NCBI GenBank assembly: GCA_965220805.1
Contig: OZ244844.1
Coordinates: 3,527,262-3,591,261 of the forward strand
Source of the DNA: Alphaproteobacteria bacterium
Lineage (GTDB): Bacteria > Pseudomonadota > Alphaproteobacteria > SP197
Reading direction: 5' to 3'
Length of the DNA stretch: 64,000 bases
Shown: positions 14,511 through 42,826 of the stretch, one piece after another
Position numbering within the stretch: the stretch's first letter is position 1
Layout of the letters: each line of letters starts with the position of its first letter
Translations under genes and position numbers: made by a program
The notes under the pieces: generated by a model
Seen by the model: only the letters and a program-made list of their open reading frames with translations
Databases searched by the model: none
What the model was told of the DNA's origin: nothing

Positions 14511-14542
14511 GTCCTGCCGTCTCCGGACTGTCTGAAGAAACG

Positions 14543-14580
14543 ACAGGGATAACCGGGACGGTGACGTCCCGGTTATCCCT
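14543..14580 (-). terminator. Perfect 17-bp stem / 4-nt loop hairpin between the binding-protein and permease genes (intra-operon attenuator or mRNA stabiliser)
   Basis: CAGGGATAACCGGGACG-GTGA-CGTCCCGGTTATCCCTG read directly. It lies 13 nt after the SBP stop. Confidence 0.6.
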
Positions 14581-14592
14581 GAAACTTGAACG

Positions 14593-15666: not shown

Positions 15667-15771
15667 GATTGTCGTCTCCCTTTAAAGGACGTTGTTCATG
15701 TCTTGCACGGTCACGAAGACCCTGCTTCATGCGCCGCGTCACACGCGGCCTGAAGGATGCTTCCTGTCATG

Positions 15772-18405: not shown

Positions 18406-18566
18406 GAAACTCCCTTTCCGCCAGGCAAGAATGAGGCTCGCGACGCCTGTTTCCGCAAGACTGCACTGCGAATCGCTCCGGTCCCGGATACAGTCGTGGT
18501 GCTGCGACGCCGGTCTTCCCGTCCTTGCACGAGGCGGGTAGATTGCCGCATCGACGGGAGGTGACA

Positions 18567-20212: not shown

Positions 20213-20343
20213 GTTCCCTCGACTCCGTCGTGTCACCCTCAGAATCACTACACTCTCCGTGAGGAAGGTGCGACTCGCAATGCCTGATGCGACAGGGCAA
20301 ACTCTCCTCTCGCATGTCATTTGACGATAAGGAGTTTGAAGTC

Positions 20344-21264
20344 ATGGGAATTGCGAAGAAGTTTCTGCTCACCGCCGGTGTCGCCCTCATGTTCACAGGT
20401 CCGGCCGGCGCGGACGTGCCCGAGTCGGAGAGGCCGATCATTGCTCCACTGCACAACTGGACCGGCGCTCAGATATCCACGACCGTCGCAGGGGAGATTC
20501 TCCGGCGCATCGGCTACGACGTCGAATACGTGGCCGTCTCCGCACTGGCGGCGGCACAGGGTATCGCCGATGGCGAGATCACCTATTCGCTCGAATTGTG
20601 GGATAACAACCTGGGTGACCTTTATCCGGTCCTGATCGAGGAGGGCGATATCGTCGACATCGGTGATCTGGGACTCGATGCCCGGGAAGGTTGGCTCTAT
20701 CCGCTCCATGTCGAGAAGGAGTGCCCGGGCCTGCCCGCCTGGGAGGCTTTCCTCGATTGCCACGAGATCTTTGCCACCGCCGAGACCATGCCCAATGGCC
20801 GCTTCCTCGACTATCCGTCGGAATGGCGCAGCCGCGGCGGCGATCTCATTCGCGAGCAGGACCTGCCCTTCGACGTCGTGCCGGCCGGCAGTGAGGGAAC
20901 GATGATCGCGGAACTCAATTCGGCAATGGATCGCCAGGCGCCGCTTGTCATGATGTTCTGGGCTCCCCACTGGGTGCTGTCGGTTCATGAGACCGGCTGG
21001 ATCGACATGCCCGAGGATCTGGTGAACCAGTACAGCCTCCACAAGCCGCGCATCTTCAAGGTCGTGTGGCCCGGAATCCACGATGAGTGGCCCGTCGCCG
21101 CCCGGTTCCTGGAGAACTTCACTCTCGCGAACGGTCCCCAGGAAATCATGATGGACCTGATCGACAACCAGCAACAGGACCTCATTGAAGTGACGAACCA
21201 GTGGCTCGACGAAAACGTGGACGTCTGGCAACCCATGGTCGACGCGGCCATGGCAGGTTCCTGA
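20344..21264 (+). CDS. Glycine betaine/proline betaine-type periplasmic binding protein (ProX/OpuAC family); no adjacent permease or ATPase
   Basis: Signal peptide MGIAKKFLLTAGVALMFTGPAGA, then NWTGAQISTTVAGEILRRIGYDVEYV...ELWDNN, typical of OpuAC-fold SBPs. AAGGAG lies upstream of ATG 20344. Confidence 0.8.
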   Translation: MGIAKKFLLTAGVALMFTGPAGADVPESERPIIAPLHNWTGAQISTTVAGEILRRIGYDVEYVAVSALAAAQGIADGEITYSLELWDNNLGDLYPVLIEEGDIVDIGDLGLDAREGWLYPLHVEKECPGLPAWEAFLDCHEIFATAETMPNGRFLDYPSEWRSRGGDLIREQDLPFDVVPAGSEGTMIAELNSAMDRQAPLVMMFWAPHWVLSVHETGWIDMPEDLVNQYSLHKPRIFKVVWPGIHDEWPVAARFLENFTLANGPQEIMMDLIDNQQQDLIEVTNQWLDENVDVWQPMVDAAMAGS

Positions 21265-26963: not shown

Positions 26964-29117
26964 CTATGCCGAGAAGGCTTGTGCCGGGCGCCCGGCCGAT
27001 TTCCGGGGCGGGACAGCCCCGTCAGAGCGCTTAACCGCCGTCTGGGGAACCAGCACGGCATCGACGGCTCTGACGAAGTCTTCACCGACTATGAGCGGAT
27101 TGACGTCCATCTCAGCGATGACGTCCTTCAGCGCGTGGCAGACGGCGGAAAACCGGCTGAGCACGACCGAGAGCAGGGCAATGTCGCAGGGCGGCCGGGA
27201 ACGCACGCCTTCAAGCAGGCGCCGGGTCCTGAGCCCGTCGATGAGACGGCGGGCCTCACCGGCACCAAAGGGCGCGAGCGACGAGGCCCGGTCTTCAAGC
27301 AGTTCCACCAGGGTGCCTCCGGCGCTCACCATCACCACGGGCCCCCACTGCGGATCATTCACCATGCCGAATGCCACTTCGGTTTCACCCCGGACCATTT
27401 CGGCAACACACATGTCCGGCCCAAGCGACATCAGGGACGTGACGGCATTGCGCAACGCCGCCTCGTCCTGAAGATCGAGATGAACGCCACCGCTGTCGGA
27501 CTTGTGAAGGAGTCCCGGCACCGCCGTCTTGAGCACCACCGGGTATCCGATGTCACGGGCCAGCTTCGCGGCTTCGTCAGGGGAGCAGCATAGCCGGTTC
27601 GCCGCTACCGGAATGCCGAATTCACCAAGCATGGCGAGAACTTCGGTTTCGCCAGGAGCGTCACTCCGGGAAAGACGTTCCTTCCAGAGCCGGACAAGGT
27701 CCGGATCCATGGCCGGCGCCGTTCCATCGTTCACCATCCGTCGATCACGGTACGCGAAGGCACACCTCACGCCCGTGAGAAGCGGCTTCACACCGTTGAT
27801 CACCGGAACGCCGCTGTCGAGCATGTCGCTGGCGAAGGATCCGTTGTCGGCAGCGCCGAGGGAACTGGTGAGAATGTAGGGTTTGTCCGAGTCACGGCCA
27901 ATCCGCCGCGCCGCCTCACCGATCTCCGGCAGGCCCTCCTGCCGGTCCGTGCGGAAGTACTCGTGGGCAAGAATCGCAACTCCGGGGTCCCGTTCGAGAA
28001 TGCCGGCACACTGGCCGATCACGGTTCCGAGGCGTTCGTCGAACGGGCCCGCGGCGTCGAGCGGATTGACTGCCTCGAGCCCGATACCGAGACGCGAATC
28101 GAGAGCACTGACGGTTGCCCTGGACAACGGTGCGAACTCAATTTCCATGTCACTGGCAAGATCGATCAGCTGTTCGCGCAATCCTCCCGAATCGAGAATC
28201 GCGGCAAACCCACCCATGCCCACGTTCTTCCCCAGAGCGAAGATCTGGGCTGCAGCCATGAGGCCGTCGAGGTCGTCCGTGCGCAACACGCCGTAGCGGC
28301 GGCACACCGCATCGAATGCCGTGTCATCACCGACAAGGGCCCCTGAATGGGTCTGGGCAAGCCTGGCGCTTTCCGGCGTTCTTCCGACCTTCGTCACCAC
28401 CACGGGGATGTCCCGGTCGCACGCCTTGGCGACGGCCCGCACGAAGGCGTCAGGATCACGGATCGCCTCGGCAAAGAGTGCCAGAACTCGGGTTGTTGGC
28501 TGCTCCAGGGCGTAGTCCATGTAGTCCGCGAGCGATGCGTTGATCTCCTGTCCCTGGGACACCAGCAGATTGAAGCGCATCCGGCGGGACTCGTTGGCAA
28601 GCAGGCCGAACACCGATCCCGAGTGGCACAGGGCCGCAATGTTGCCGGGCCTGGTATCGAAGGGCTCCTGAAAACTCGCGAAGGTCCGCGCCTCAAAGTT
28701 GTAGAATCCCATGCCGTTGCCACCGCAAACCGGAACGCCCGCCTCGCGGGCCATCGCCTTCAGGCGTTCGAGAAGGCGGGGTTCCCGGTCGTCATCGAGG
28801 AGACAGGCATCGAAGATGACCATGGCACGGGCTCCGGCGCGGATCGCTTCGCCCATCACCCTCTCCATGCGATGCGCGGCCACCGACAGGATTGCAAGAT
28901 CGACAGGCCCGGAGAGATCCGCCAGGGAGGCCACGGCCTCGATGCCCTCGACGGCAGAGTGTCTCGGGTTCACCACCGCAAGACTGCCAGGGTAGCCACC
29001 CGCCAGAAGGCTTCTTGTCATGAGGTTTCCGACGGAGCCGGGCCGCGGCGATCCGCCGACAAGGGCAATGGATCGCGGCGCAAGCAGGGGCTCAAGCCAG
29101 TGGGTGCGTGCCGTCAT
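26964..29117 (-). CDS. ADP-forming (NDP-forming) acyl-CoA synthetase, fused alpha/beta type
   Basis: N-terminal CoA-binding Rossmann fold (SIALVGGSPRPGSVG), succinyl-CoA-synthetase-like ligase-CoA domain and C-terminal ATP-grasp domain; 717 aa. Confidence 0.8.
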   Translation of the reverse strand: MTARTHWLEPLLAPRSIALVGGSPRPGSVGNLMTRSLLAGGYPGSLAVVNPRHSAVEGIEAVASLADLSGPVDLAILSVAAHRMERVMGEAIRAGARAMVIFDACLLDDDREPRLLERLKAMAREAGVPVCGGNGMGFYNFEARTFASFQEPFDTRPGNIAALCHSGSVFGLLANESRRMRFNLLVSQGQEINASLADYMDYALEQPTTRVLALFAEAIRDPDAFVRAVAKACDRDIPVVVTKVGRTPESARLAQTHSGALVGDDTAFDAVCRRYGVLRTDDLDGLMAAAQIFALGKNVGMGGFAAILDSGGLREQLIDLASDMEIEFAPLSRATVSALDSRLGIGLEAVNPLDAAGPFDERLGTVIGQCAGILERDPGVAILAHEYFRTDRQEGLPEIGEAARRIGRDSDKPYILTSSLGAADNGSFASDMLDSGVPVINGVKPLLTGVRCAFAYRDRRMVNDGTAPAMDPDLVRLWKERLSRSDAPGETEVLAMLGEFGIPVAANRLCCSPDEAAKLARDIGYPVVLKTAVPGLLHKSDSGGVHLDLQDEAALRNAVTSLMSLGPDMCVAEMVRGETEVAFGMVNDPQWGPVVMVSAGGTLVELLEDRASSLAPFGAGEARRLIDGLRTRRLLEGVRSRPPCDIALLSVVLSRFSAVCHALKDVIAEMDVNPLIVGEDFVRAVDAVLVPQTAVKRSDGAVPPRKSAGRPAQAFSA

Positions 29118-29254
29118 CCAGAACCCCTCGCCTTCACCGCCGGCAAATCATGGTGCGGTCATGGTGCGTGTCAAGGCAGATCCGGCGTCTTGCGGGAGGG
29201 CGCGCGCAGGCGTTAACTAATGGTGCGATTGATTCGGAACCGCGGGAGCAATCC

Positions 29255-30064
29255 ATGACCATGCCGGCTGAAGACAGCGTGAGCCAGGGCGTGACTGTCC
29301 ACCGGGAGGACGGCGTGCTGCTCGTCATCCTTGATCGTCCTCCGGCCAACGCCATCGACAATGCAACCAGCCGCAGGATGGGAGAAGTGTTCCTCGGATT
29401 TCGTGATGATCCCGACCTCAGGGTGGCCATCCTGACCGGCGGCGGCGAGAAGTTCTTCTCGGCCGGCTGGGACCTCAAGGCCGCGTCGGCCGAACTCGAG
29501 GTGCTCGAGGAGGATTACGGGCCTGGCGGGTTCGGCGGCATGCAGGATCTGCTCGATCTCAACAAACCCATCATCAGCGCGGTCAACGGCATCTGTTGTG
29601 GTGGCGGACTCGAAGTCGCCCTCGACGCCGACATCCTGATTGCTGCCGAACATGCCACCTTCGCGCTCCCCGAAATCACCGTCGGCACCTATGCGCCGGC
29701 CGCCTGTATCGCCCTGCCCAAGCGCATTCCCTATCACATCGCCATGGAACTCCTTCTCACCGGCAGATGGTTCGATGCCGCCGAAGCACACCGCTGGGGT
29801 CTGGTCAATCGCGTGGTTCCTTCAACGGACCTCATGGATGAAGCCTGGAAACTGGCACGGCTCCTTGCCGACGGGCCACCCCTTGTCCAGGCGGTCACCA
29901 AGGAAATCGTGCGCGACGCAGAGGACAAGAAGTTCCAGGACGCTCTCAACAAGGTCAACAGACGGCAGTACCGCACCGTCGAGACCATGATCCCCAGCGA
30001 GGACCGCAAGGAGGGTCCGCGCGCCTTCCAGGAGAAGCGCAAACCGGTCTGGAAGGGGCGCTGA
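29255..30064 (+). CDS. Crotonase-family enzyme closely resembling carnitinyl-CoA dehydratase CaiD
   Basis: Recalled E. coli CaiD aligns along the whole length (RPPANAID, MGEVFLGFRDDPDLRVAILTGGGEKFFSAGWDLKAA, LNKPIISAVNG, FQEKRKPVWKGR C-terminus). ATG 29255 has GGGAG upstream. Confidence 0.8.
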   Translation: MTMPAEDSVSQGVTVHREDGVLLVILDRPPANAIDNATSRRMGEVFLGFRDDPDLRVAILTGGGEKFFSAGWDLKAASAELEVLEEDYGPGGFGGMQDLLDLNKPIISAVNGICCGGGLEVALDADILIAAEHATFALPEITVGTYAPAACIALPKRIPYHIAMELLLTGRWFDAAEAHRWGLVNRVVPSTDLMDEAWKLARLLADGPPLVQAVTKEIVRDAEDKKFQDALNKVNRRQYRTVETMIPSEDRKEGPRAFQEKRKPVWKGR

Positions 30065-30087
30065 CCGGGATTTCCGTCTCGGGAGAT

Positions 30088-32169
30088 GTGACAAGAGTGA
30101 CGCGCGACCCGCGATACGACATTCTCTTCGAGCCGGTGCGCATCGGCCCCGTCGTGGCGCGCAACAGGTTCTACCAAGTTCCCCACTGCAATGGCGCCGG
30201 CATCCAGTTTCCCCACGGACAGGCCGCCATGCGAGGCATGAAGGCCGAGGGCGGTTGGGCGGTGGTGAACACCGAGTGGTGTTCGATCCACCCGTCCATG
30301 GACATTCCGCCGGCCCAGAGCACGAGGCTGTGGAGCCAGGAGGATGTGCGCGTTCACGCCCTGATGGTGGAGGCCGTCCATCGCCACGGCGCGCTGGCCG
30401 GGTGCGAACTCGCCCACGCAGGTCTCACGTCACACAATTCCTACAGCCGGCTGCCGGCCATGGGGCCATCTGCCCGTCCCATGCCTCCCCGGGACTTTCC
30501 CGGTCAAGGCCGGTCCATGACGCGCAACGACATTCGCAACGTCCGGCGCTGGCACCGCGAGGGTGTCAGACGTGCCCTCGAGGCAGGGTTCGACCTTGTC
30601 TACGTCTACGCCAGTCACGGCATCACGGTCTTCACGGACTTCCTGTCGCCGCGAATCAACCGGCGCACAGATGAATACGGGGGGTGTTTCGAGAATCGCC
30701 TGCGCCTGTTGCGCGAGACCCTCGAGGACGTCATGGAAGAGGCGCAGGGACGTTGTGCCGTAGCCCTGCGCTTCGGCGTCGACGAAAAGGACGGACCGGT
30801 CCACCTGGGAGAGGAAGAGTGCCGGGCGGTCGTCGAAAGCCTGGCCGAGGTACCCGATCTGTGGGATGTGAACGTCGGCGGGCCGAACGACATGCTGACC
30901 TCGCGATTCCGCAAGGAGGGTTGGCAGGAACCTTCCATGGCCTTCGTCAAGACACTCACCTCCAGACCTGTGGTTGGCGTCGGCCGATTCACCAGTCCGG
31001 ACACGATGGCGGCCATGGTCAGGCGCGGCGTTGTCGACTTCATCGGCGCAGCCCGACCGTCAATCGCCGATCCGTTCCTGCCCCGCAAGATCGAGGAAGG
31101 CCGCATCGACGACATTCGCGAGTGCATCGGCTGCAACGTGTGCCTGGCCTCCAACATGATGTCCGTGCCCATACGCTGCACGCAGAATCCCACCATGTCG
31201 GAGGAATGGCGTCGTGGATGGCACCCGGAACGGTTGCCCCGGCGCGGCAGCGGAGCACGCGTCCTTGTCATCGGAGCAGGACCGGCCGGTCTCGAGGCAG
31301 CCAGGGCCGCAGGAGAGCGGGACTATGAGGTGACTTTGGCCGAGGCAGGGGCGGAGCCAGGTGGCCATCTCAACCGATTGGCGCGGCTACCAGGTCTCGA
31401 GGAATGGATCCGGGTACGCGATTGGCGCGTCAGCCAGATCGACCGATTGAACAATGTCGAGGTGTACCGGGGGAGCAGACTCGACGCATCAGACGTGACG
31501 GACTGGGGCTTCGGGCACGTGATTGTCGCCACCGGATCGCACTGGCGTCGCGACGGAGTAGGACACACCAACATCGATCCAATTCAGGGACACTCCGGCG
31601 AACATGTCCTCAACCCAGACGACATTCCTGGCGATACCCCTGTGCATTCGCCGGTGGTGATCTTCGATGATGACGCCTATGTCATGGGGGGAGCACTGGC
31701 AGAGAAACTCGCCCGCGATGGACACCGCGTCCTTCTTGTCGCCACCGGGGCCATGGTTTCGCCCTGGAGCAGTTTCGTGATCGACCAGGCGGACATTCAC
31801 CGCCGCCTGGTCTCGTGTGGCGTGGAGGTTCTCCTCAACCACAATCTCCTGTCCATCCAGGAGGACTCGGTGAGACTGGCCGGAATGTTCGGTGAACCCC
31901 CATTCACCCGGCGGGCAGCGAGCGTCGTTCTGGTGACGATGCGCACCCCGCAGACTGAGCTGGCCCGCAGCCTCTCCGGGGCCATGGACAGAGGCGACAT
32001 CCGAAGCCTCACGGCCGTGGGCGACTGCCGGGTGCCGGGGCTCATTTCCGAAGCGGTCTTCAGCGGGCACCTGGCGGCACGCTCCCTCGACGAAGCCAAT
32101 CCCGGCGACCTTCCCTTCCGGGTCGAACAGGTGCCTGCGGGCACGGGAGACGAGTTGTGCGTGAGGTAG
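30088..32169 (+). CDS. Trimethylamine/dimethylamine/histamine dehydrogenase-family flavoprotein (FMN + 4Fe-4S + ADP-binding domains)
   Basis: [33 protein letters not shown] closely parallels the recalled TMADH N-terminus, including the FMN-linking Cys. Also [25 protein letters not shown] and the cluster motif CIGCNVC...C. GTG start 30088; GTG 30097 is an alternative. Confidence 0.85.
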   Translation: [693 protein letters not shown]

Positions 32170-32963
32170 GCGATCGGGACCGCGCCCTATTCGAGGAAGA
32201 CGGCGTCGTGCTGCTGCACGGGGCCTTTGACGAGGCATGGGTCGACTTTCTTCGCCAGGCCGTCGACGAGGCCATGGCCAACCCGGGGCCTCACGCCATG
32301 GAGTACGCCAGTGAAGGACGCTTCTTCGGCGATGTCGAACTCGCCCATCGCCTGCCGGCGTTCATGCGCTTCGTGCGCGAATCGCCTGCGGCGAGATACG
32401 CCGGCCTCATCATGGGTTCCTCGAAGGTCAACTATTTCGACGATCATCTCCTGGTCAAGGAACCCGGGACCGGCAAACCCTCCCCGTGGCACCAGGACCA
32501 GCCCTACTGGGCTGTCAGCGGGCGCCAGGTCTGCTCCCTGTGGCTGCCGCTCGACCCTGTCAGCTGCGACATTGCCGTCGAGTTCGTTAAGGGCTCCCAC
32601 GATTGGCAGGAGTTCAGCCCCTATCACTTCGAGGACGGGCGCCTCTATGAGGGAGTCGGGCTCCCTCGCCTGCCGGACATCGAATCGCACCGCGACCGAT
32701 ACGAAATCCTGCGTTTTCCCATGGAACCCGGTGACGCGCTCATGTTTCACGGCATGACCGTTCACGGTGCTCCGGGCAACACGGGCAGTCTTCGCCGCCG
32801 GGCGCTCTCGACCCGGTGGACCGGAGACGATGCGCGCTTTCACCGGCGTCCAGGCGAGATTTCGGTACCCACCGTTCTGCCGGACCTTGCCGAAGGCGCA
32901 AGCCTTGATTGTGACCGTTTCCCGGTCGTCTGGAGACACGCCCCTCCGGGGCATGGTGCGTGA
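32157..32963 (+). CDS. Fe(II)/2-oxoglutarate dioxygenase, PhyH (phytanoyl-CoA dioxygenase) family
   Basis: PWHQDQPYW (H-x-D) and MFHGMTVHGAPGN (distal His) motifs. GTG start overlaps the preceding gene by 13 nt. Confidence 0.8.
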   Translation: MREVGDRDRALFEEDGVVLLHGAFDEAWVDFLRQAVDEAMANPGPHAMEYASEGRFFGDVELAHRLPAFMRFVRESPAARYAGLIMGSSKVNYFDDHLLVKEPGTGKPSPWHQDQPYWAVSGRQVCSLWLPLDPVSCDIAVEFVKGSHDWQEFSPYHFEDGRLYEGVGLPRLPDIESHRDRYEILRFPMEPGDALMFHGMTVHGAPGNTGSLRRRALSTRWTGDDARFHRRPGEISVPTVLPDLAEGASLDCDRFPVVWRHAPPGHGA

Positions 32964-32969
32964 TCATCC

Positions 32970-33917
32970 ATGGAAACTCGCTCGCTCTATCCACCGGTCG
33001 ACCCATATCGATCGGACCGACTGGCGGTCGGGGACGGCCACGAACTCTACTTCGAGGAGTGCGGCAACCCTGAAGGCAAGCCCGCCGTCTTCCTGCACGG
33101 CGGACCCGGAGGTGGTGTAAGACCACACTACCGGCAGTACTTCGATCCCGAAGCCTGGCACGTGGTCCTGTTCGACCAGCGGGGTTGCGGCCGTTCCACG
33201 CCATGGGCTTCGCTCGAGGCCAACACCACGTGGCACCTGGTTCATGACATGGAGGTCTTGAGGGGACATCTCGGAATCTCCTCCTGGCTTGTCTTCGGTG
33301 GATCCTGGGGAAGCGCGCTGGCGCTCGCCTATGCCCAGACCCATCCCGAGCATGTGAGTGAACTCGTTCTCTACGGCATTTTCACCCTGCGCCAATCGGA
33401 ACTCCGGTGGCTCTACCAGGACGGAGCCAGCCACGTCTTTCCCGATGCCTGGGAGGATTTTCTCGCCCCTGTTCCCGAAGCCGGAAGGGACGACATGATG
33501 GGATCCTACATGCACCTCCTGACATCCGGCGATCCCGACATCGAACGCGAGGCAGCGAGGGCATGGAGTGTCTGGGAAGGGTCGATCCTCTCGCTTGTCC
33601 CCGATCCAGGACGGCTGGAGAGGTTCGCATGCGATGGTTTCGCCAGGGCCTTTGCTCGGATTGAGTGTCACTACTTTGTCAATGGCGGGTTCTTCTCCCG
33701 CGACGGCCAGCTTATCGACGACATCGACAGGTGTCGGCACATACCCGCGGTGATCGTGCAGGGACGCTACGACATCTGCACACCGGCCAGAACGGCATGG
33801 GACCTGCACCGCGCATGGCCGGAAGCCGACTTCCGCCTCGTACCCGATACCGGGCACACGGCCCTCGAACCGGGGAACATCCATGAGCTCGTGGGTGCCA
33901 CGGATGGCTTCAGGTAG
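32970..33917 (+). CDS. pip: Prolyl aminopeptidase (proline iminopeptidase) family alpha/beta hydrolase
   Basis: LYPPVDPY....L.VGDGHELYFEECGNPEGKPAVFLHGGPGGG and GGSWGSALALAY nucleophile elbow. Confidence 0.85.
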   Translation: METRSLYPPVDPYRSDRLAVGDGHELYFEECGNPEGKPAVFLHGGPGGGVRPHYRQYFDPEAWHVVLFDQRGCGRSTPWASLEANTTWHLVHDMEVLRGHLGISSWLVFGGSWGSALALAYAQTHPEHVSELVLYGIFTLRQSELRWLYQDGASHVFPDAWEDFLAPVPEAGRDDMMGSYMHLLTSGDPDIEREAARAWSVWEGSILSLVPDPGRLERFACDGFARAFARIECHYFVNGGFFSRDGQLIDDIDRCRHIPAVIVQGRYDICTPARTAWDLHRAWPEADFRLVPDTGHTALEPGNIHELVGATDGFR

Positions 33918-33949
33918 GTTCGGCTTTCATTGGGAAGAGGACTCCGGCG

Positions 33950-34738
33950 ATGGATCTGGAACTTCGTGGCAAGACTGTCCTGATCACCGGCGGATCACGC
34001 GGCATCGGCCTCGCCACGGCCCGTGTCTTCGCGTCGGAAGGGGCTGATCTCCATCTGGCCTCGAGGACGAGAGAGGATCTCGAATGTGCCAGGAACGCCA
34101 TCCGGAGCGAATTCGCGGTAGCCGTCGACATCCACGTGGCGGATCTCTCGAGCGGGGAAGAAGCGCGCGCGGTGGCGCACGCCTGCGCCGACGCCGACAT
34201 TATGGTGAACAATGCCGGCGCCATTCCGCTTGGCACATTGCTGGATGTCGACGACGAGACCTGGCGCGCCGCCTGGGATCTCAAGCTCTTCGGTTACATC
34301 ACGATGATGCGCGCCATGTACGATCAAATGAAGGCGCGCGGCCGGGGCGTGATCGTCAACAACATCGGCACGGCGGGCGATCAGGCACCATCCGGCTATG
34401 CCGCAGGGGTGACGGCCAATGGTGCGCTCGTCACCCTGACGCGGGCGCTCGGTGGAACGAGTCTCGACGATGGAATCAGGGTTGTTGGCATCAGTCCCGG
34501 TGACATGGAAAACGAGCGCGGCATCATGGCGCTCAAACACCATGCCTTGAAGAGATTCGGGGACAGCGACCGGTGGCGCGAGCTGATCTCCGGCATGCCC
34601 GGCGGGTCGCTCCCGGTTTCAGAGGACATGGCCCATGCCATCGTCTTTCTCGCCAGCCCCCGGGCACGTTTCATCAGCGGCGTGGTGCTCACCATCGACG
34701 GCGGCATGTGCGCACGCCAGGCGGTCATCGGCGGCTGA
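33950..34738 (+). CDS. Short-chain dehydrogenase/reductase (SDR)
   Basis: TGGSRGIG cofactor motif, NNAG, and catalytic region consistent with a classical SDR. Confidence 0.85.
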   Translation: MDLELRGKTVLITGGSRGIGLATARVFASEGADLHLASRTREDLECARNAIRSEFAVAVDIHVADLSSGEEARAVAHACADADIMVNNAGAIPLGTLLDVDDETWRAAWDLKLFGYITMMRAMYDQMKARGRGVIVNNIGTAGDQAPSGYAAGVTANGALVTLTRALGGTSLDDGIRVVGISPGDMENERGIMALKHHALKRFGDSDRWRELISGMPGGSLPVSEDMAHAIVFLASPRARFISGVVLTIDGGMCARQAVIGG

Positions 34739-34942
34739 AGAGCACATCGACACCGGACTGCCGGCCGTGATCCCCTCGTCGCCACGATGGGACTGAAGCA
34801 ACGCGGGACAAACAGCTCTCACGCGGGATGGTCGTGACGGTCCCGCAGCCCCTCGGACGATCTTTCATTCTTCGGGTTGCCTTCATCACGACATGGCGGC
34901 ATGCCATACTTCCTGTTCCTGTCGACCTGCGGAGTGCCGGCC

Positions 34943-36766
34943 ATGCGTCTCGTGCCCATTCTTGTTGTCCTGGTGCTGGCAGCGGGGGCCGCGCTGGCCG
35001 AAACGGTGCGGGAGTCCCACGGAATCTCGCGGTACGGCGACCTCAAGTACGACGAGACCTTCCGTCACTTCGACTATGTCAATCCCGACGCGCCCAAGGG
35101 CGGCGAGGCCCGGCTCTTCGGCTTCGGCGGTTTCGACACTCTCAACGCCTACAGCCTCAGGGGGCGCAAGGCGGCGGGTCTCTCGAGGCTCTATGACACC
35201 CTGCTGAAAGAGTCGAATGATGAACCGACCGCGGCCTACGGACTGCTGGCCGATCGCGTGCGGGTACCAGACGATCACTCCTGGGTCGCCTTCCGCTTGC
35301 GCGCCGAAGCACGATGGCATGATGGCACGCCGGTCACGGCGGACGATGTGGTCTGGAGTCTCGAAACCCTGCGCGAGAGCGGTCTGCCTTTCTACGCCGC
35401 GTACTATGCCAATGTCACCGAAGCGGTCGTCGAGGACGGTGGCTGGGTGCGCTTCACATTTGATGGTCCGGGTAATGTCGAACTGCCGCTGATTCTGGGT
35501 GATCTTCCGGTGCTGCCACGCCATTGGTACGAGGGCCGGAGTTTCGAGGAGGCCAGCCTCGAGTTCCCCATGGGAAGCGGACCCTACAAGGTCATAGACG
35601 TCGACCCGGGGCGTTCCATCACCTACGCGCGCCACGAGGACTACTGGGGCGCTGGTCTTCCGGTCAATTCCGGATTCTACAACTTCGATCGCATTCGCTA
35701 CGACGAGTATCTCGATCTCGACATCGCCATGGAGGCCTTCAAGGCACACGAGTACGACGTTCGTTCGGAGAACAATTCCAAGCGCTGGGCAACGTCCTAC
35801 AGCGGCAGCATCTTCGATGACGGTCTGGTCATCGTCGAGAAGATCGTACACAGCCGTCCCCAGGGCATGCAGGGATTCGTCTTCAACCTGCGCCGCGAGA
35901 AATTCGCCGATCCGAGGGTCCGTCAGGCACTTGCCCTGGCCTTCGATTTCGAGTGGGCCAACCAGAACCTCTTCTACGGCCAGTACCTGCGATCGGTGAG
36001 CTATTTTTCCAATTCGGAACTTGCCGCCAGCGGCGCCCCGGATGATGCCGAACGCGCCCTGCTGGAGCACTATGCCGACGACCTTCCGGACTCTGTCTTC
36101 GGCGAGGCTCCCGTACCACCGGTCACCGACGGGTCCGGCAACATCAGGACCAATCTGCGCAAGGCAAAGGCCCTGCTGGCAGAGGCAGGCTGGACAGTCG
36201 AGGACGGCGTGTTGACCGGTCCATCAGGAACACCCATGGAAATCGAGTTCCTCATGGTCCAGCCGGCATTCGAACGCATTCTCCAACCGTTTCGCGCCCA
36301 GCTCGAGCGCCTCGGAGCCCGCCTGGAGATCCGGTCCATCGATGCCGCCCAGTACAAGGAACGCCTCGACAATTTCGATTTCGACATGGTGGTGTCCAGT
36401 TTCGGCCAGTCGCGCTCGCCAGGCAATGAACAGAGAAACTACTGGGGCTCGGCAGCCGCCGACATTCCCGGAAGCAACAACCTTGCCGGCATCAGGAGTC
36501 CGGTGATCGACGCCCTTGTCGAAGAGATCATCTATGCTGGCACCCGAGCGGACCTCGTGACGGCATCGCGGGTTCTCGACCGGGTGCTGCGCCACGGCCA
36601 CTATGTCATTCCCAACTGGCACATCACCTACGACCGGGTCGCCTGGTGGGACAGGTTCGGACAGCCTGACATCGTTTCCGACGACGGCATCGTTCTCGAC
36701 ACCTGGTGGATTGATGCCGGGAGGGATGCGGCGCTCAAGGAGCGAATCGGCACGGATAACGACTGA
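34943..36766 (+). CDS. yejA: Family-5 (peptide/microcin C-type) periplasmic binding protein, YejA-like
   Basis: Signal peptide MRLVPILVVLVLAAGAALA; ~600-aa SBP at the head of a yejABEF-ordered operon. Confidence 0.75.
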   Translation: MRLVPILVVLVLAAGAALAETVRESHGISRYGDLKYDETFRHFDYVNPDAPKGGEARLFGFGGFDTLNAYSLRGRKAAGLSRLYDTLLKESNDEPTAAYGLLADRVRVPDDHSWVAFRLRAEARWHDGTPVTADDVVWSLETLRESGLPFYAAYYANVTEAVVEDGGWVRFTFDGPGNVELPLILGDLPVLPRHWYEGRSFEEASLEFPMGSGPYKVIDVDPGRSITYARHEDYWGAGLPVNSGFYNFDRIRYDEYLDLDIAMEAFKAHEYDVRSENNSKRWATSYSGSIFDDGLVIVEKIVHSRPQGMQGFVFNLRREKFADPRVRQALALAFDFEWANQNLFYGQYLRSVSYFSNSELAASGAPDDAERALLEHYADDLPDSVFGEAPVPPVTDGSGNIRTNLRKAKALLAEAGWTVEDGVLTGPSGTPMEIEFLMVQPAFERILQPFRAQLERLGARLEIRSIDAAQYKERLDNFDFDMVVSSFGQSRSPGNEQRNYWGSAAADIPGSNNLAGIRSPVIDALVEEIIYAGTRADLVTASRVLDRVLRHGHYVIPNWHITYDRVAWWDRFGQPDIVSDDGIVLDTWWIDAGRDAALKERIGTDND

Positions 36767-36780
36767 CCGAAGGCAGCGTC

Positions 36781-37863
36781 ATGTTCGCCTACATTGTCCG
36801 GCGCCTGCTGTTCATCGCCCCTACGCTGTTCGCCATCATGATGATCAATTTCGTCATCGTGCAGTTCGTGCCGGGCGGGCCCGTCGAACGCATCCTTGCC
36901 GAACTCGAAGGCACGGCCGTCGGCGCCACGGCCAGGGTTGCAGGCTCTGGCAGTGACGTACAGTCCGCGGGAGAATCGCTCTACCGCGGGGCGCAGGGAC
37001 TGCCGGACGGTTTCGTCGAGAAACTCGAGAAGATGTACGGCCTCGACAAGCCACCGGTCGAGCGATTCCTTCTGATGATGGAGAATTACCTCACCTTCGA
37101 CTTCGGGGAGAGTGCCTTCCGGAGCCGGAGCGTCGTCGATCTCATTGTCGAAAAGATGCCTGTCTCCATTTCCCTTGGACTATGGACGACGCTCGTCGTC
37201 TACATCGTGTCCATCCCCTTAGGGATCGCCAAGGCAAGGCGTGACGGCAGCGCCTTCGACGTGTGGACAAGCGGCACGATTATCCTGGGATACGCCATCC
37301 CGGGTTTCCTGTTCGCCATCCTCCTCGTGGTGCTGTTCGCCGGCGGATCCTACTGGAAGCTCTTCCCGTTGCGCGGTCTCGTTTCTCCGGGTTTCGAGGA
37401 CATGAGCACCCTGGGCCAGATTGCTGACTACTTCTGGCACCTGGCACTGCCCCTGACGGCCCTCATCATCGGCAGCTTCGCCACGCTGACCATGCTCACC
37501 AAGAATTCCTTCATCGACCAGATCCGAAGCCAGTACGTCACGACAGCACGCGCCAAGGGGCTGAGCGAGCGGCGGGTCCTCTACGGCCACGTGTTCCGCA
37601 ACGGCATGCTCATCATCATTGCCGGCTTTCCCGGGGCCATCATCGGCATCCTCTTCACGGGCGCGCTCCTCATCGAGATCATCTTCTCACTCGACGGCCT
37701 CGGACTGCTCGGTTACGAGGCAGCCATTGACCGGGACTATCCGGTCATGTTCGCAACTCTCTACATTTTCACCCTTCTCGGCCTCGTCCTGAATCTCGTC
37801 GGCGACCTGATGTATGTCATCGTCGATCCGCGTATCGACTTCGAAAGCCGGGATGTCGGATGA
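36781..37863 (+). CDS. yejB: ABC permease, YejB-like
   Basis: MFAYIVRRLLFIAPTLFAIMMINFVIVQFVPGGP N-terminus typical of DppB/YejB permeases; 360 aa. Confidence 0.8.
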   Translation: MFAYIVRRLLFIAPTLFAIMMINFVIVQFVPGGPVERILAELEGTAVGATARVAGSGSDVQSAGESLYRGAQGLPDGFVEKLEKMYGLDKPPVERFLLMMENYLTFDFGESAFRSRSVVDLIVEKMPVSISLGLWTTLVVYIVSIPLGIAKARRDGSAFDVWTSGTIILGYAIPGFLFAILLVVLFAGGSYWKLFPLRGLVSPGFEDMSTLGQIADYFWHLALPLTALIIGSFATLTMLTKNSFIDQIRSQYVTTARAKGLSERRVLYGHVFRNGMLIIIAGFPGAIIGILFTGALLIEIIFSLDGLGLLGYEAAIDRDYPVMFATLYIFTLLGLVLNLVGDLMYVIVDPRIDFESRDVG

Positions 37864-38903
37864 GGTTCAGCAGCCACAGGTTGGATCCCATCACGCGACG
37901 GCGCCTGACCAATTTCCAGGCCAACAGACGCGGCTACTGGTCCTTCCGGATCTTCCTCGTCCTCTTCGCCTTCACCTTGCCGGCAGAGTTGATTGCAAAT
38001 GACCGGCCCCTTGCCGTGTGGTTCGACGGTGCTCTCTACGTACCCGTGCTGACGGCCTACCCCGAGACGGTATTCGGTGGCGATTTCGAGACCGAGGCGG
38101 ACTACCGCGATCCCTTCGTCAAGGATCTCATCCATGATGGGGGCGGGTGGATCGTCTGGCCTCTCATTGCCTACGACTACCGCACCATCAACTACGATCT
38201 TCCGAGTCCGGCGCCCTCCCCTCCGACCGCCGAAAACTGGCTTGGAACGGATGATCAGGGACGTGACGTCGCGGCGCGAGTCATCTACGCCTTTCGCCTC
38301 TCGGTTCTCTTCGGTCTCGTCCTGACACTCGTTTCATCCGTCATCGGAATCGCCGCCGGCGCCGTCCAGGGCTACTACGGGGGCTGGATCGACCTTCTGG
38401 CGCAACGCGCCCTCGAGGTGTGGGGCGGCATACCGGTGCTCTACATCCTCATCATTCTGGCAAGTGTCATCGTTCCCGGATTCTGGACCCTTCTCGGTCT
38501 TCTCGTCCTGTTCTCGTGGACGGCTCTCGTGGGCCTGGTCCGGGCAGAGTTCCTGCGCACCAGGAACTTCGACTATGTCAAGGCAGCGCGGGCACTGGGG
38601 GTGACCGACAGGGTCATCATGGTGCGCCACGTGCTGCCCAATGCGATGGTGTCGACCCTGACCTTCCTGCCCTTCATTCTCAATGGTTCGATCACCACGC
38701 TCACGGCTCTCGACTTTCTCGGATTCGGTCTGCCGCCGGGCTCACCCTCGCTTGGAGAGCTGCTGAACCAGGGGCGCAACAACCTTCAGGCGCCATGGCT
38801 TGGATTGACGGGATTTGCCGTCGTCGCACTGATGCTCTCTCTCCTCACATTCACCGGAGAGGCCGTGCGCGATGCCTTCGATCCCCGGAAGTTGCCGTCA
38901 TGA
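37860..38903 (+). CDS. yejE: ABC permease, YejE-like
   Basis: DppC/YejE-type permease (WLGTDDQGRDV motif). 4-nt overlap with yejB. Confidence 0.8.
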   Translation: MRFSSHRLDPITRRRLTNFQANRRGYWSFRIFLVLFAFTLPAELIANDRPLAVWFDGALYVPVLTAYPETVFGGDFETEADYRDPFVKDLIHDGGGWIVWPLIAYDYRTINYDLPSPAPSPPTAENWLGTDDQGRDVAARVIYAFRLSVLFGLVLTLVSSVIGIAAGAVQGYYGGWIDLLAQRALEVWGGIPVLYILIILASVIVPGFWTLLGLLVLFSWTALVGLVRAEFLRTRNFDYVKAARALGVTDRVIMVRHVLPNAMVSTLTFLPFILNGSITTLTALDFLGFGLPPGSPSLGELLNQGRNNLQAPWLGLTGFAVVALMLSLLTFTGEAVRDAFDPRKLPS

Positions 38904-40522
38904 CGCTCCTTGATGTCCGCGATCTCACGGTCCGATTCAAGGTGGAGAATCGCATCATCGATGCCGTCAGGAACGTGAGTTTCTCCATCGCCCCGTCCGA
39001 GACACTTGCCCTTGTCGGCGAGTCGGGGTCCGGCAAGTCGGTCACGGCTCTTTCCATTCTTCGCCTCGTCGCTTCCGGGCATTCGTCCGGTGAGGTCATT
39101 TTCCGGGGCGACAATCTCGTCGGCATGCCGGAACGGGACCTGCGTCAGGTACGAGGCAACCGGATTTCCATGATCTTCCAGGAGCCGATGACGTCCCTCA
39201 ATCCACTCCATTCCATTTCCCGGCAGATCGCAGAGCCTCTGGTCGTTCACCAGGGCATGACGGCCCAGGCGGCCGCAAGGCGGGTGCGCGAACTCATGGA
39301 CCTCGTCGGACTGGGCGATCTGGCGGACCGGGTTCATGACTACCCCCACACGCTTTCGGGAGGCCAGCGCCAGCGCGTGATGATCGCCATGGCGCTGGCC
39401 TGCGAACCGGATCTCCTGATCGCTGATGAACCGACAACCGCCCTCGATGTCACGGTGGAAGCCCGCATTCTCGAACTGCTGGGCTCCCTCCAGCGACAAC
39501 TGTCGATGGCCGTTCTCTTCATTACCCACAACCTCTCCATCGTCCACCGGTTTGCCGATCACGTGGCGGTGATGGATGGTGGCCGGATCGTCGAATCGGG
39601 AACCGTCGCCGATGTCTTCACCCGCCCGCAGCATGCGTCGACCCAACATCTTCTCACCTCACAACCCCGTGGCAGGCCGCAGCCGGTTCCACAAGAGAGC
39701 GCAAGGCGTCTCGATGCCCGGTCCCTGAAGGTCTGGTTCCCTGTCCACGCAGGCGTGTTCAGAAGGACGGTCGGTCATGTCAAGGCCGTCGACGGCATCG
39801 ACCTGGCAGTCCGAGGCCGCGAGACCATCGGCATCGTCGGTGAATCGGGATCCGGAAAATCGACGCTTGGTATGGCCATCCTGCGGCTCATCACCAGTGA
39901 AGGCGACATCAGCTACGAAAACCGCAGCCTGCAGGGGCTGGGTTTCCGGGACCTCAGACCACTGCGCCGGGAACTTCAGATCATCTTCCAGGATCCCTTC
40001 GGCTCGCTGTCGCCACGCATGTCGGTAGCCGGCATCATCGAAGAGGGACTGAAGGTCCACGGCATGGGGAAGAGTCCATCAGGCCGCCGCGAGCTGGTTG
40101 CCGAAGCTCTCCACGAGGTCGGTCTCGAGCCCGCCATGATGGATCGTTATCCCCACGAGTTCTCCGGGGGTCAACGCCAGCGCATCGCCATCGCCCGCGC
40201 GATGATCCTCAAACCGAGGGTCGTCGTTCTCGACGAACCGACAAGCGCCCTCGACATGTCGGTACAATCCCAGATCATCACGTTGCTGCGCCGGCTTCAG
40301 GACGATCACGATCTCGCCTATCTCTTCATCAGTCACGACCTCAGGGTGGTGCGTGCGATGAGCCATCATGTCCTGGTGATGAAGGCGGGGCGCGTGGTCG
40401 AATCGGGAAGCGCTCACGACATCTTCGAAACACCGAAATCCGCGTACACCCGCGCCCTGATGGCTGCGGTCAGCGACACCGGCGGGGCATGGGCACGATC
40501 CGGACAGGATCCGGCGTGCTGA
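38900..40522 (+). CDS. yejF: Tandem-domain ABC ATPase, YejF-like
   Basis: Two full ABC cassettes (GESGSGKS x2, LSGGQRQR x2). ATG 38900 overlaps the yejE stop. The track ORF from 38420 is an out-of-context extension. Confidence 0.9.
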
Positions 40523-40540: not shown

Positions 40541-41473
40541 ATGGCACTTCTCTACATGAGCGGACACAGCGACGGTCCGGTGTGGGAGGCATGTCTCGCT
40601 CCCCATTTTCCCGGCCTCGACTTTCGCGTCCATCCTGACAGCGGCTCGCCCGAAGACATCGATGCCGCCCTGGTCTGGAATCATCCTCTTGACGATCTGG
40701 CGCGTTTTCCCCGCCTCAGGCTCGTCATGTCCCTTGGTGCCGGCGTCGACCATATCTTGGCGTCACGTCATCTGGTTCCTCATGGCGTCGCCCTGACACG
40801 CATTGTCGACCCCGCCATGACCGCGCAGATGACCGGCTGGTGCGTGATGGTCATGCTCGACCACCTGCGCCGCATGGAAGACTACCGCCGGCTCCACAGG
40901 GAGCGCCGCTATGAAGAGCTCGAGGTGCTGCTACCGCGCGATGTCACGGTAGGTATCCTGGGACTCGGCGTGCTCGGCGGGGACTGTGCCCGTGTCATCA
41001 CGGCGATGGGCTACCAGGTCAGGGGATGGAGCAGGTCGCCGCGCCACGTCGAAGGCGTGACCTGCCATTCGGGAATGAAGGCACTCGAGGAATTCCTGGG
41101 GCCCTGTGATGTCGTGATATGCCTGTTGCCGCTCACCGGAGAAACCGAAGGCATCCTGAATGCCCGCACGATGTCCTGGATGAAACCGGGAGCCTTTCTC
41201 ATCAATGCCGCACGGGGCGGCCATGTCGTGGAGGAAGATCTTGTTCGGGCGATCGACGATGGTCGTCTCGCCGGCGCCGCGCTCGATGTCCAGCGCCAGG
41301 AACCCATGCCTGACGACCATCCGTTCTGGTATCACCCGAAGATCATGACCTTTCCGCACATCGCGGCCCTGACCGTACCGGAAACCAGCGCTCCCCAGAT
41401 TGCCGAGAACTTTCGGCGGCTGCGTACCGGCAAGCCCTTCATCAATGTCGTGGATCTCGAGCGCGGCTACTGA
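40541..41473 (+). CDS. D-isomer-specific 2-hydroxyacid dehydrogenase (GhrA-like glyoxylate/hydroxypyruvate reductase)
   Basis: NAD-binding GILGLGVLGG, catalytic region INAARGGHVVEEDL, and HPKIMTFPHIAA C-terminal motif. Confidence 0.8.
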   Translation: MALLYMSGHSDGPVWEACLAPHFPGLDFRVHPDSGSPEDIDAALVWNHPLDDLARFPRLRLVMSLGAGVDHILASRHLVPHGVALTRIVDPAMTAQMTGWCVMVMLDHLRRMEDYRRLHRERRYEELEVLLPRDVTVGILGLGVLGGDCARVITAMGYQVRGWSRSPRHVEGVTCHSGMKALEEFLGPCDVVICLLPLTGETEGILNARTMSWMKPGAFLINAARGGHVVEEDLVRAIDDGRLAGAALDVQRQEPMPDDHPFWYHPKIMTFPHIAALTVPETSAPQIAENFRRLRTGKPFINVVDLERGY

Positions 41474-42534: not shown

Positions 42535-42826
42535 CACCCGTTTCCCTCTTGCCGACAGACGCCCTGCCAACTCCTCCTCACTCTACGATAGCAGACCTTC
42601 CACGTCATGCCGTCTCCAACGGGTACCTCGCGCGGTGCCCAAGGTCGACACTGTATTCCGTGCAAGGGTCATGGACGTCGGGAGCAAACGGGAATGGTGT
42701 TGGCGTGGAATTGGCAGCCGGGGAATGCGCGATCGATACGGTTGAAGAAGCCGGTATCGGGTTCAATCATGCTGCTGCAAGGGGTGCGACAAAGATACCT
42801 GAAGAGGCGGGAACCGGAGGCACGCC

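Follow-up and report, generated by a model that had tools for sequence, protein, structure and literature searches.

The 64,000-nucleotide stretch of alphaproteobacterial DNA studied here (contig OZ244844.1, referred to as the window) carries a compact six-gene island that probably constitutes a new catabolic gene module, in which a new subfamily of the trimethylamine dehydrogenase (TMADH) family is coupled to a crotonase; every part of the module comes from a known enzyme family. The grouping is not a product of chance. Because other uncultured bacteria also carry the six genes close to one another, with the order changed, they probably belong to one uncharacterised pathway, and we consider it very likely that they form a single functional unit. 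The relatives of the island's hydratase, acyl-CoA synthetase and flavoprotein, together with other genes of the window, point to the handling of a small cationic nitrogen compound, partly as its CoA ester. We propose, tentatively, that this compound has an ω-amino or ω-trimethylammonio C4-C5 skeleton of the γ-butyrobetaine/carnitine kind.

The combination of a subfamily resembling TMADH and histamine dehydrogenase (HADH) with CoA-thioester chemistry is found in no described amine or betaine pathway. Our literature searches returned no paper linking these enzyme families and no published description of the module, in line with a preliminary description of this DNA that had placed the combination outside known routes.

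A six-gene island with a divergent control region

Families were assigned by Pfam and NCBIfam profile searches of the window proteins. The preliminary description had reported five tightly packed genes transcribed divergently from a synthetase gene. Inspection of the open reading frame table and of the sequence finds all six genes at the positions and with the spacing that it gave, save for a correction to the start of the flavoprotein gene and the gap before it, and the profile searches agree with each of its six family assignments. The features are as follows.

26964-29117, minus strand: ADP-forming acyl-CoA synthetase (ACD), fused α/β form, 717 aa, divergent from the other five genes
29118-29254, no strand: putative divergent control region, 137 nt, between the ACD start and the ATG of the next gene
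29255-30064, plus strand: CaiD/BcoD-like enoyl-CoA hydratase (ECH), 269 aa, with GGGAG preceding the ATG
30088-32169, plus strand: Fe-S flavoprotein of the trimethylamine/histamine dehydrogenase family, 693 aa, likely true start at 30097
32157-32963, plus strand: PhyH-family Fe(II)/2-oxoglutarate oxygenase, 268 aa, its first 13 nt shared with the end of the flavoprotein gene and a GGGAG 7 nt before its start
32970-33917, plus strand: prolyl aminopeptidase (Pip), 315 aa, 6 nt after the PhyH gene
33950-34738, plus strand: atypical protein of short-chain dehydrogenase/reductase (SDR) fold, 262 aa, 32 nt after the Pip gene

For the flavoprotein, the second GTG, at 30097, is the more likely start, giving a protein of 690 aa, because a 99%-identical protein (P0121) is 690 aa long and a GGGAG lies 11 nt upstream. 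With this start, the gap between the ECH and flavoprotein genes would be 32 nt rather than 23 nt.

The 137-nt region is strongly conserved in the related metagenome-assembled genomes (MAGs) L001, L003 and L007, on par with coding sequence. It contains a direct repeat (TCATGGTGCGG and TCATGGTGCGT) plus a GTTAAC palindrome, which could be an operator, and a predicted sigma-70-like promoter (TTGACA-16-CATGAT, matching at 10 of 12 positions) that points toward ACD. No regulator gene was found in the island of the window; a LysR gene accompanies the module in L008, L086, L089 and L173.

The gene grouping is conserved across lineages

Close relatives of the window (L001-L003, L006 and L007) retain the whole six-gene arrangement. 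One of these, L002 (MPMV01), has the same synteny and a PhyH protein that is 88% identical; it corresponds to bin56 from the microbiome of the sponge Aplysina aerophoba, an alphaproteobacterium in the ‘EF100-94H03’ clade assigned to group I of the ‘carnitine guild’ (Slaby; PMC5649159). In L001, L002 and L003 the PhyH-Pip spacer is about 270 nt, compared to 6 nt in the window, and between a ClpP-like gene and ACD there is an additional Pyr_excise gene (pyrimidine-dimer excision-like; L001 4288-4779) that the window does not have.

Rearranged forms of the module were seen in six further lineages, with identities to the window proteins in brackets.

L089, an unrelated contig: all six genes in another order and orientation (ACD 64%, ECH 76%, flavoprotein 72%, PhyH 61%, Pip 70%, SDR 74%), with an orphan SBP_bac_5 protein, a LysA-like decarboxylase and LysR
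L008: ACD, LysR, PhyH, SBP_bac_5, luciferase-like monooxygenase, flavoprotein and ECH
L086 and L090: the ECH-flavoprotein pair, with a PhyH paralogue nearby; L090 adds the SDR gene (76%), amid insertion sequence elements and ParAB
L173: ACD (57%), ECH (73%) and flavoprotein (68%), with an amidase, an FrhB-like protein, a ferredoxin and its reductase, a decarboxylase, LysR, an aldo-keto reductase and a β-lactamase-family hydrolase as new partners
L174: ACD (54%), ECH (74%) and flavoprotein (64%), with an amidase, an FrhB-like protein, a decarboxylase, SBP_bac_5, a second ECH and a betaine-aldehyde-type aldehyde dehydrogenase (ALDH) as new partners

The co-occurrence across genomes that the preliminary description had suggested examining holds. 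The ECH gene lies directly upstream of the flavoprotein gene, at gaps of 23-60 nt, in seven out of seven lineages (the window and these six), and the six ECH proteins concerned are 73-84% identical to that of the window. An ACD orthologue occurs with this pair in five lineages (window, L008, L089, L173 and L174); ACD orthologues of 54-64% identity were found in the last four and in L004. PhyH orthologues (61-69%) adjoin ACD in L004, L008 and L089, the Pip orthologue (70%) adjoins the flavoprotein gene in L089, and SDR orthologues (74-76%) are present in L089 and L090. The conserved core consists of ACD, ECH and the flavoprotein, and PhyH, Pip and the SDR-fold protein are lineage-variable accessories. 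The carriers of the module are several uncultured, largely sponge-associated bacteria.

Genes that join the core elsewhere also recur. Amide-type hydrolases appear as Pip in the window and L089, as an amidase in L004, L173 and L174, and as the β-lactamase-family hydrolase in L173. LysA-like decarboxylases occur in three lineages (L089, L173 and L174). By gene calls, the ALDH gene of L174 overlaps the flavoprotein gene by 4 nt, and in L173 the aldo-keto reductase gene comes after that of the flavoprotein. We also see a recurrent sub-module of ACD, an amidase-signature amidase and an FrhB/FdhB-like protein (L173 1-4723; L174 16410-21254), which in L004 (10001-14446) has PhyH first and no FrhB-like protein; the ACD-amidase sub-module accompanies the ECH-flavoprotein pair in lineages without Pip.

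Controls were available. Sister flavoproteins of ‘VGH’ type stand alone (L087 and L088). A metagenome survey anchored on ECH, in which 80 loci with relatives at 62-72% identity were examined among at least 570 ECH relatives, gave ordinary butyrobetaine/carnitine clusters; ECH was set aside as an anchor for the module and the survey served as a control, with the flavoprotein present in 0 of the 80 BcoD-type loci.

The flavoprotein falls in a separate subfamily of the TMADH/HADH family

The flavoprotein combines the Pfam domains Oxidored_FMN, OYE-like_second_a-b and Pyr_redox_2. Its PDB matches are headed by histamine dehydrogenase 3K30 (8e-209, 698.6 bits, residues 9-680), followed by TMADH (1.6e-159, residues 6-686), with the dienoyl-CoA reductase FadH at 1e-33. 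Over its full length it has the three-domain architecture of the TMADH/HADH family, namely an OYE-like flavin mononucleotide (FMN) barrel and two Rossmann-like domains in about 690 aa. Cys34, in YQVPHCNG, occupies the 6-S-cysteinyl-FMN position (TMADH Cys30, HADH Cys35) and is predicted to form the covalent link; it is kept in nearly all subfamily members, and in 84 of 84 sequences of a lower-identity set. The CxxCxxC...C motif for a 4Fe-4S cluster is present (CIGCNVCLASNMMSVPIRC) and lines up with its counterpart in 3K30 and TMADH, and the YxxH pair is conserved. The TMADH/HADH-like assignment of the preliminary description thus stands on the 3K30 score as against that of FadH. A reading as a FadH-like reductase was rejected on the same scores and on the presence of the Cys for covalent FMN, and the ‘reduction’ suggested earlier for this protein is unlikely because of these amine-dehydrogenase hallmarks.

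The substrate site differs from those of the known enzymes. We take Gln65, Glu79, Trp267 and Asp358 to be the histamine-binding residues of 3K30. In the window protein Gln65 is replaced by Trp64, Glu79 by Ser78 and Asp358 by Asn356, and Trp267 is deleted (GG-PND compared to GSWEGD), a pattern that is kept across the subfamily at 63% identity or above. Of the aromatic bowl of TMADH (Tyr60, Trp264 and Trp355) only the first position is aromatic (Trp64), as Trp264 falls in a four-residue deletion and Trp355 aligns to a gap beside Asn356. Histamine and trimethylamine were both rejected as substrates on these binding-site residues. An NTEWCS signature marks a separate subfamily block, with 63-72% identity; the remainder of the family is at 60% or below and mostly has Glu at that position. 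In short, the flavoprotein is, by its sequence, a true member of the trimethylamine/histamine dehydrogenase family that falls in an uncharacterised subfamily.

Paralogues of 50-52% identity on Sinorhizobium meliloti pSymA and on a Leisingera plasmid adjoin SSADH or betB genes and hydrolases. The order on pSymA (L175 5415-10094) is SSADH, α/β hydrolase and flavoprotein paralogue; on the Leisingera thetidis plasmid (L176 3671-15550) it is LysR, binding protein, choline-sulfatase-like protein, flavoprotein, cupin, ATP-binding cassette (ABC) transporter and betB. Both of these clusters are themselves uncharacterised, and the paralogues, being in cultured bacteria, are tractable entry points to the family.

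The hydratase and synthetase are related to enzymes of onium and C4 acids

The hydratase matches Pfam ECH_1 at 9e-64 and has both crotonase catalytic Glu residues (in GGGLE and LPE). Its best NCBIfam model is crotonobetainyl-CoA hydratase (NF002936, 294 bits), as expected from its earlier description as CaiD-like, with a score under the equivalog cut-off of 500. This model is specific to enteric CaiD, since it gives just 337 bits even for the hydratase of L128, where the cluster is clearly of bco/cdh type. The nearest relatives of the window ECH, as assigned by genomic context, are crotonobetainyl-CoA hydratases of γ-butyrobetaine/carnitine clusters: it is 62-72% identical to hydratases inside marine metagenome clusters of acyl-CoA dehydrogenase, ACD, ECH, BKACE and carnitine dehydrogenase genes. 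In L128 (6813-13149) these stand in the order acyl-CoA dehydrogenase, ACD, ECH, BKACE and carnitine 3-dehydrogenase (623 bits, over the cut-off). Such a cluster represents the S. meliloti-type pathway from butyrobetaine through carnitine to glycine betaine (bco/cdh), which Bazire is said to have described in 2019. BcoAB makes γ-butyrobetainyl-CoA. Clusters of this composition are very common in marine metagenomes (L128 and about 60 others, L092-L170). In the 80 ECH-anchored loci, an ACD of another subfamily, 24-28% identical to that of the window, nearly always precedes ECH. The carnitine/butyrobetaine partners (acyl-CoA dehydrogenase or CaiA/B/C, BKACE and carnitine dehydrogenase) are absent from the island and within 10 kb of any module locus. 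For the island, profile searches agree with the preliminary description that CaiA, CaiB and CaiC are missing.

The window ACD has all three domains of its superfamily (CoA_binding_2, Succ_CoA_lig and ATP-grasp_5). Its best PDB matches, about equally close, are 4-hydroxybutyrate-CoA ligase 8WZU (3e-68) and the dimethylsulfoniopropionate (DMSP) lyase DddX 7CM9 (2e-64). The phospho-His is conserved in THSGAL and aligns with DddX His292. A His385-Glu386 pair is invariant in six module-type ACDs and was placed on DddX His431-Glu432 by both MAFFT and hhalign; a pairwise HMMER alignment put Gln393, and not this motif, at the position of DddX Glu432. The motif is missing from BcoAB-type ACDs in the same alignment, and a pairwise alignment to the 4-hydroxybutyrate ligase shows no His-Glu there. 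Glu432 of the DddX pair is the proposed catalytic base for cleavage of DMSP-CoA (PMC8163506). The DddX cation-π residues Trp391 and Phe435 are not kept, being Ala356 and Arg389 in the window protein. With these residues absent and an overall identity of 28%, the ACD was rejected as a DddX orthologue, and the His-Glu motif was retained as a lead toward a possible ligase/lyase activity.

Relatives of the ACD at 37-41% identity in cultured bacteria adjoin amine/betaine-type genes. The neighbourhood on a Shinella plasmid consists of ECH, ACD, 3-hydroxyacyl-CoA dehydrogenase, GcvT and BKACE, and that on a Ruegeria pomeroyi megaplasmid contains LysR, choline dehydrogenase and a polyamine-type ABC transporter.

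The accessory proteins: an oxygenase, a peptidase and an atypical SDR-fold protein

The oxygenase matches Pfam PhyH at 1e-30. All of 45 homologues share its HxD...H facial triad (His112-x-Asp114...His203) and, for the binding of 2-oxoglutarate, Arg213-215. Among proteins of solved structure the best match is MysH, which is N-dealkylating (9PZE; 1e-38, 136 bits over about 258 aa). A look-up of the exact window sequence found it not on record. The subfamily is large (4590 matches) and uncharacterised, and its genes usually stand alone. PhyH is a poor marker of the module, because in a survey of 80 genome loci anchored on it, relatives at 65% identity or below almost never carry the other module genes.

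Pip scores 414 bits on TIGR01249 (cut-off 260) and matches the Serratia prolyl aminopeptidase 1QTR (1.7e-121, 408.8 bits) and that of Xanthomonas, 1AZW (1.7e-117), over essentially the full length. The Ser113, Asp268 and His296 triad of 1QTR, its imino-binding Glu204 and Glu232, and Phe236 and Cys271 are all kept. Judged by these residues, Pip is a bona fide prolyl aminopeptidase.

The SDR-fold protein scores 330 bits on PRK06125 (cut-off 261) and has the cofactor motifs TGGSRGIG and NNAG. An alignment to 3AI1 puts Gly140, Val154 and Asn157 at the positions of the classical Ser, Tyr and Lys, and there is no YxxxK; no Lys lies within 14 residues of Tyr150, which is itself His in L090. Four orthologues (window 33950-34738; L001 12051-12839; L089 18278-19066; L090 16654-17442) share the pattern NNIGTAG...AAGVTANGAL without change. 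This protein may not be an ordinary dehydrogenase.

A proposed pathway and its alternatives

From the gene identities, catalytic motifs and co-localisation described above we infer all of the substrates and the order of steps. The explanation that we prefer as a whole, that of a catabolic module acting on a small cationic compound of the kind named at the outset and with the flow given here, is possible at somewhat under even chances; the particular order of steps is more doubtful. In the lineage of the window the substrate would probably be delivered as a prolyl amide, and Pip (elsewhere an amidase) would take the N-terminal proline off a peptide-like conjugate to leave a free amine. Where a decarboxylase is present, the amine could be made from a lysine- or diaminopimelate-like amino acid. 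The flavoprotein would then oxidise the C-N bond of the amine to give an aldehyde and pass the electrons on, as suggested by its family and by its coupling to an ALDH gene elsewhere. TMADH passes its electrons to electron-transfer flavoprotein (ETF). The aldehyde would be converted to an acid, a step for which L174 has a clear aldehyde dehydrogenase, and ACD would, as its family suggests, turn the acid into a CoA thioester. The PhyH-type oxygenase may hydroxylate the acyl-CoA or remove an N-alkyl group. Finally, the hydratase would, to judge by its nearest relatives, interconvert onium- or amino-substituted C4-C5 enoyl- and 3-hydroxyacyl-CoA, with the product entering carnitine/butyrobetaine-type metabolism.

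Oxidation of amine to aldehyde and acid before CoA activation is what the ALDH of L174 and the decarboxylases of the variant clusters point to, along with the aldo-keto reductase of L173 and the plasmid paralogues beside SSADH and betB. Entry through an amide is suggested by Pip, by the amidases and the β-lactamase-family hydrolase, and by the orphan SBP_bac_5 proteins of L008, L089 and L174. The onium/C4-C5 theme is suggested by the relatives of ECH in bco/cdh clusters, by the solved relatives of ACD, which act on 4-hydroxybutyrate and DMSP, by its more distant relatives in amine/betaine clusters, by the ‘carnitine guild’ membership of L002 and by the betaine-type genes elsewhere in the window. 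The flavoprotein site is consistent with it, having Trp64 in place of the polar Gln65 of HADH and lacking both of the acidic HADH residues.

Several observations weigh against this proposal. Neither an ALDH nor a decarboxylase was found in the island of the window and the SDR-fold protein lacks the classical catalytic residues, so that the step from aldehyde to acid has no clear enzyme there. The module contains no enzyme to desaturate a saturated acyl-CoA, and the role given to the hydratase therefore depends on an unproven hydroxylation or desaturation by PhyH, or on the substrate being oxygenated from the start. Between the ACD and BcoAB-type ACDs, the known type of γ-butyrobetaine-CoA synthetase, identity is no more than 24-28%. 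A trimethylammonium head group is weakly indicated, because the flavoprotein has lost both Trp residues of the TMADH bowl. Pip could be a housekeeping enzyme, being about 60% identical to general prolyl aminopeptidases and present in two of the seven lineages. In addition, no cultured carrier was found; plasmid searches detected no orthologous module in cultured bacteria, and gave only paralogues of 37-52% identity in other amine-type clusters.

The preliminary description had offered a different order, beginning with CoA activation. In a rival pathway built on it, ACD first activates a free betaine or N-methylated amino-acid-like compound, and every later step takes place on the CoA thioester: the hydratase hydrates or dehydrates, the flavoprotein oxidatively N-dealkylates or deaminates and PhyH hydroxylates, with Pip as a thioesterase-like finishing hydrolase. 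We regard this order as unlikely. The invariable adjacency of ECH and flavoprotein genes does suggest consecutive steps on one intermediate, three lineages have PhyH next to ACD, and the loss of the pocket-closing Trp of TMADH and HADH fits a bulkier substrate. In the PhyH family, the founding enzyme has a CoA ester as its substrate. However, we know of no TMADH-family enzyme that takes a CoA ester, and the ALDH coupled to the flavoprotein gene in L174, along with the decarboxylases, points to free amines and aldehydes. Pip, moreover, retains its full set of residues for recognition of prolyl peptides, which does not suggest a thioesterase. Of the broader idea of a betaine-type catabolic pathway, the betaine/onium theme has drawn support from the ECH relatives, the betaine-type genes of the window and the ‘carnitine guild’ lineage. 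The roles given to three of the proteins have fared less well: besides the reduction by the flavoprotein, those of Pip and the SDR-fold protein as finishing hydrolase and dehydrogenase are doubtful, the first being a full prolyl aminopeptidase with its imino-recognition glutamates and the second lacking the classical Ser-Tyr-Lys. For Pip, an entry step of amide cleavage is more plausible.

If the ACD were instead a ligase-lyase similar to DddX, it would activate a β-substituted propionate (of the β-alanine-betaine, N-carboxyethyl-amine or putreanine type) and eliminate an amine to give acryloyl-CoA, which the hydratase would detoxify by conversion to 3-hydroxypropionyl-CoA while the flavoprotein oxidises the released amine. 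This seems improbable. It draws on DddX being the second-best solved relative of the ACD and on the alignment of the His-Glu pair by two methods, with the motif absent from BcoAB-type enzymes. The activity also recurs in the ACD superfamily, where a second, divergent DddX-like lyase has been described (PMC13543886). Against it stand the replaced cation-π residues, the low identity and the different placement of the motif by HMMER, and the fact that the nearest relatives of the hydratase act on C4 onium esters and not on acryloyl-CoA.

A further alternative, which we also hold to be improbable, takes the core together with the decarboxylase and betaine-aldehyde-type dehydrogenase of the variant clusters as an unknown aerobic route. 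The substrate, a basic amino acid or polyamine derivative such as a compound of the trimethyl-lysine or trimethyl-ornithine type or else an aminopropyl polyamine, would be decarboxylated, oxidised by a new class of TMADH-family enzyme and brought to a butyrobetaine- or valerobetaine-type CoA ester, and the route would have been taken up repeatedly by sponge symbionts that feed on host metabolites. If true, this would give enzymes to bacterial formation of butyrobetaine-type betaines or to trimethyl-lysine breakdown, for neither of which, to our knowledge, are any genes known.

The chance is small that only the ACD-ECH-flavoprotein core is the pathway and that the transcription unit takes in PhyH, Pip and the SDR-like gene as neighbours with no relation to it. 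L086, L173 and L174 have neither Pip nor the SDR gene nor an orthologous PhyH, and carry other enzymes instead; Pip is close to general peptidases, and the PhyH subfamily is very large and its members usually alone. Yet L089 holds all three accessories within 10 kb of the core despite its scrambled order, L090 keeps the SDR gene, and L004 and L008 keep PhyH beside ACD. Very improbable is a biosynthetic module that makes a butyrobetaine/carnitine-type osmolyte or other small metabolite. Eukaryotes form butyrobetaine by the same logic of decarboxylase, amine oxidation and aldehyde dehydrogenase, and bacterial butyrobetaine synthesis was reportedly noted by Bazire in 2019 with its genes unassigned, but LysR, solute-binding proteins, amidases or peptidases and an ETF-type dehydrogenase are typical of catabolic islands. 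That the flavoprotein is a histamine dehydrogenase and the island a histamine utilisation cluster is barely credible in spite of the nearly full-length match to the Nocardioides enzyme, as all four histamine-binding residues of 3K30 are replaced or deleted, with the replacements conserved in the subfamily, and imidazole-acetate metabolism is represented by no other gene of the island.

Between marine animals and their microbes, nitrogen and carbon are exchanged in large part as quaternary amines and polyamines, and the setting of the module is that of sponge symbionts feeding on host amines. The guild of sponge symbionts to which L002 belongs was recognised by its surplus of ‘carnitine’ genes, the true substrates of which are not known (PMC5649159). 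The module could reveal a new route for host-derived nitrogen compounds, and solving it would give a function to the flavoprotein subfamily, to the large PhyH subfamily and to an SDR-fold family that lacks classical catalytic residues.

Flanking genes and the amine/betaine setting of the window

The upstream flank of the island consists of unrelated housekeeping genes (ffh, dapF, a MiaB-like radical-SAM gene, ftsY and a ClpP-like gene). Downstream lie a peptide transporter and then a GhrA-like 2-hydroxyacid dehydrogenase.

34877-40522, plus strand: YejABEF-type peptide ABC transporter, with binding protein, two permeases and fused ATPase (SBP_bac_5, BPD_transp_1 twice, ABC_tran twice)

The transporter scores 513 bits on YejB (cut-off 445), and YejF is the best model for its ATPase (697 bits). 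It was set aside as an importer for the module, since its membership is uncertain: it is syntenic with the island only inside the window's own lineage, and L008, L089 and L174 have a different, orphan SBP_bac_5.

The window is unusually rich in amine/betaine genes. The protein encoded at 42827-44356 (509 aa) belongs to the MttB superfamily, with 668 bits on Pfam MTTB and only 222 bits on the pyrrolysine trimethylamine-methyltransferase model, and is probably a non-pyrrolysine quaternary-amine methyltransferase; an NMT1_3 binding protein (41467-42570) adjoins it. Two Rieske-type oxygenase α subunits (Rieske plus Ring_hydroxyl_A; 4729-5934 and 18525-19790) belong to a family that includes betaine and carnitine oxygenases/demethylases. 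There are also an orphan OpuAC-type glycine-betaine binding protein (20287-21264), a polyamine-type ABC transporter (12418-16893; SBP_bac_8, two permeases and an ATPase with TOBE) and an MR_MLE gene of the enolase superfamily that the edge of the window truncates (3-866).

Comparison with known systems

The S. meliloti-type bco/cdh system resembles the island in using an ADP-forming, ACD-type ligase and a CaiD-like hydratase on an onium acid. The window differs in lacking acyl-CoA dehydrogenase, BKACE and carnitine dehydrogenase, in having an ACD distant from the BcoAB type, and in having the TMADH-family flavoprotein, PhyH oxygenase, Pip and atypical SDR-fold protein instead. With the Escherichia coli cai operon it shares the CaiD-like hydratase, the CaiD model being the best NCBIfam match, but it is without CaiA, CaiB, CaiC and CaiT, and activation would be by an ADP-forming ligase.

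Compared to the histamine dehydrogenases of Nocardioides simplex (3K30) and Rhizobium (6DE6) and to TMADH (2TMD), the flavoprotein has the same architecture of FMN, 4Fe-4S cluster and ADP fold, with the FMN Cys, the four-Cys motif and YxxH. It has neither substrate site, falls in its own NTEWCS subfamily and is coupled in the genome to a crotonase. DddX (7CM9) and the window ACD are alike in fold, domain order, phospho-His and, by the MAFFT and hhalign alignments, the His-Glu pair, and DddX acts on a zwitterionic onium acid; the window has no BCCT transporter or dddB/C-type genes, and the two proteins share 28% identity. MysH (9PZE), from palythine biosynthesis, has the same facial triad as the window PhyH, although the match is moderate and the window provides a catabolic context that lacks mycosporine genes. 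The prolyl aminopeptidases of Serratia marcescens (1QTR) and Xanthomonas campestris (1AZW) share with Pip the catalytic triad and both imino-binding Glu residues, whereas Pip of the window sits in, and is co-conserved with, an amine/CoA module in the window lineage and L089.

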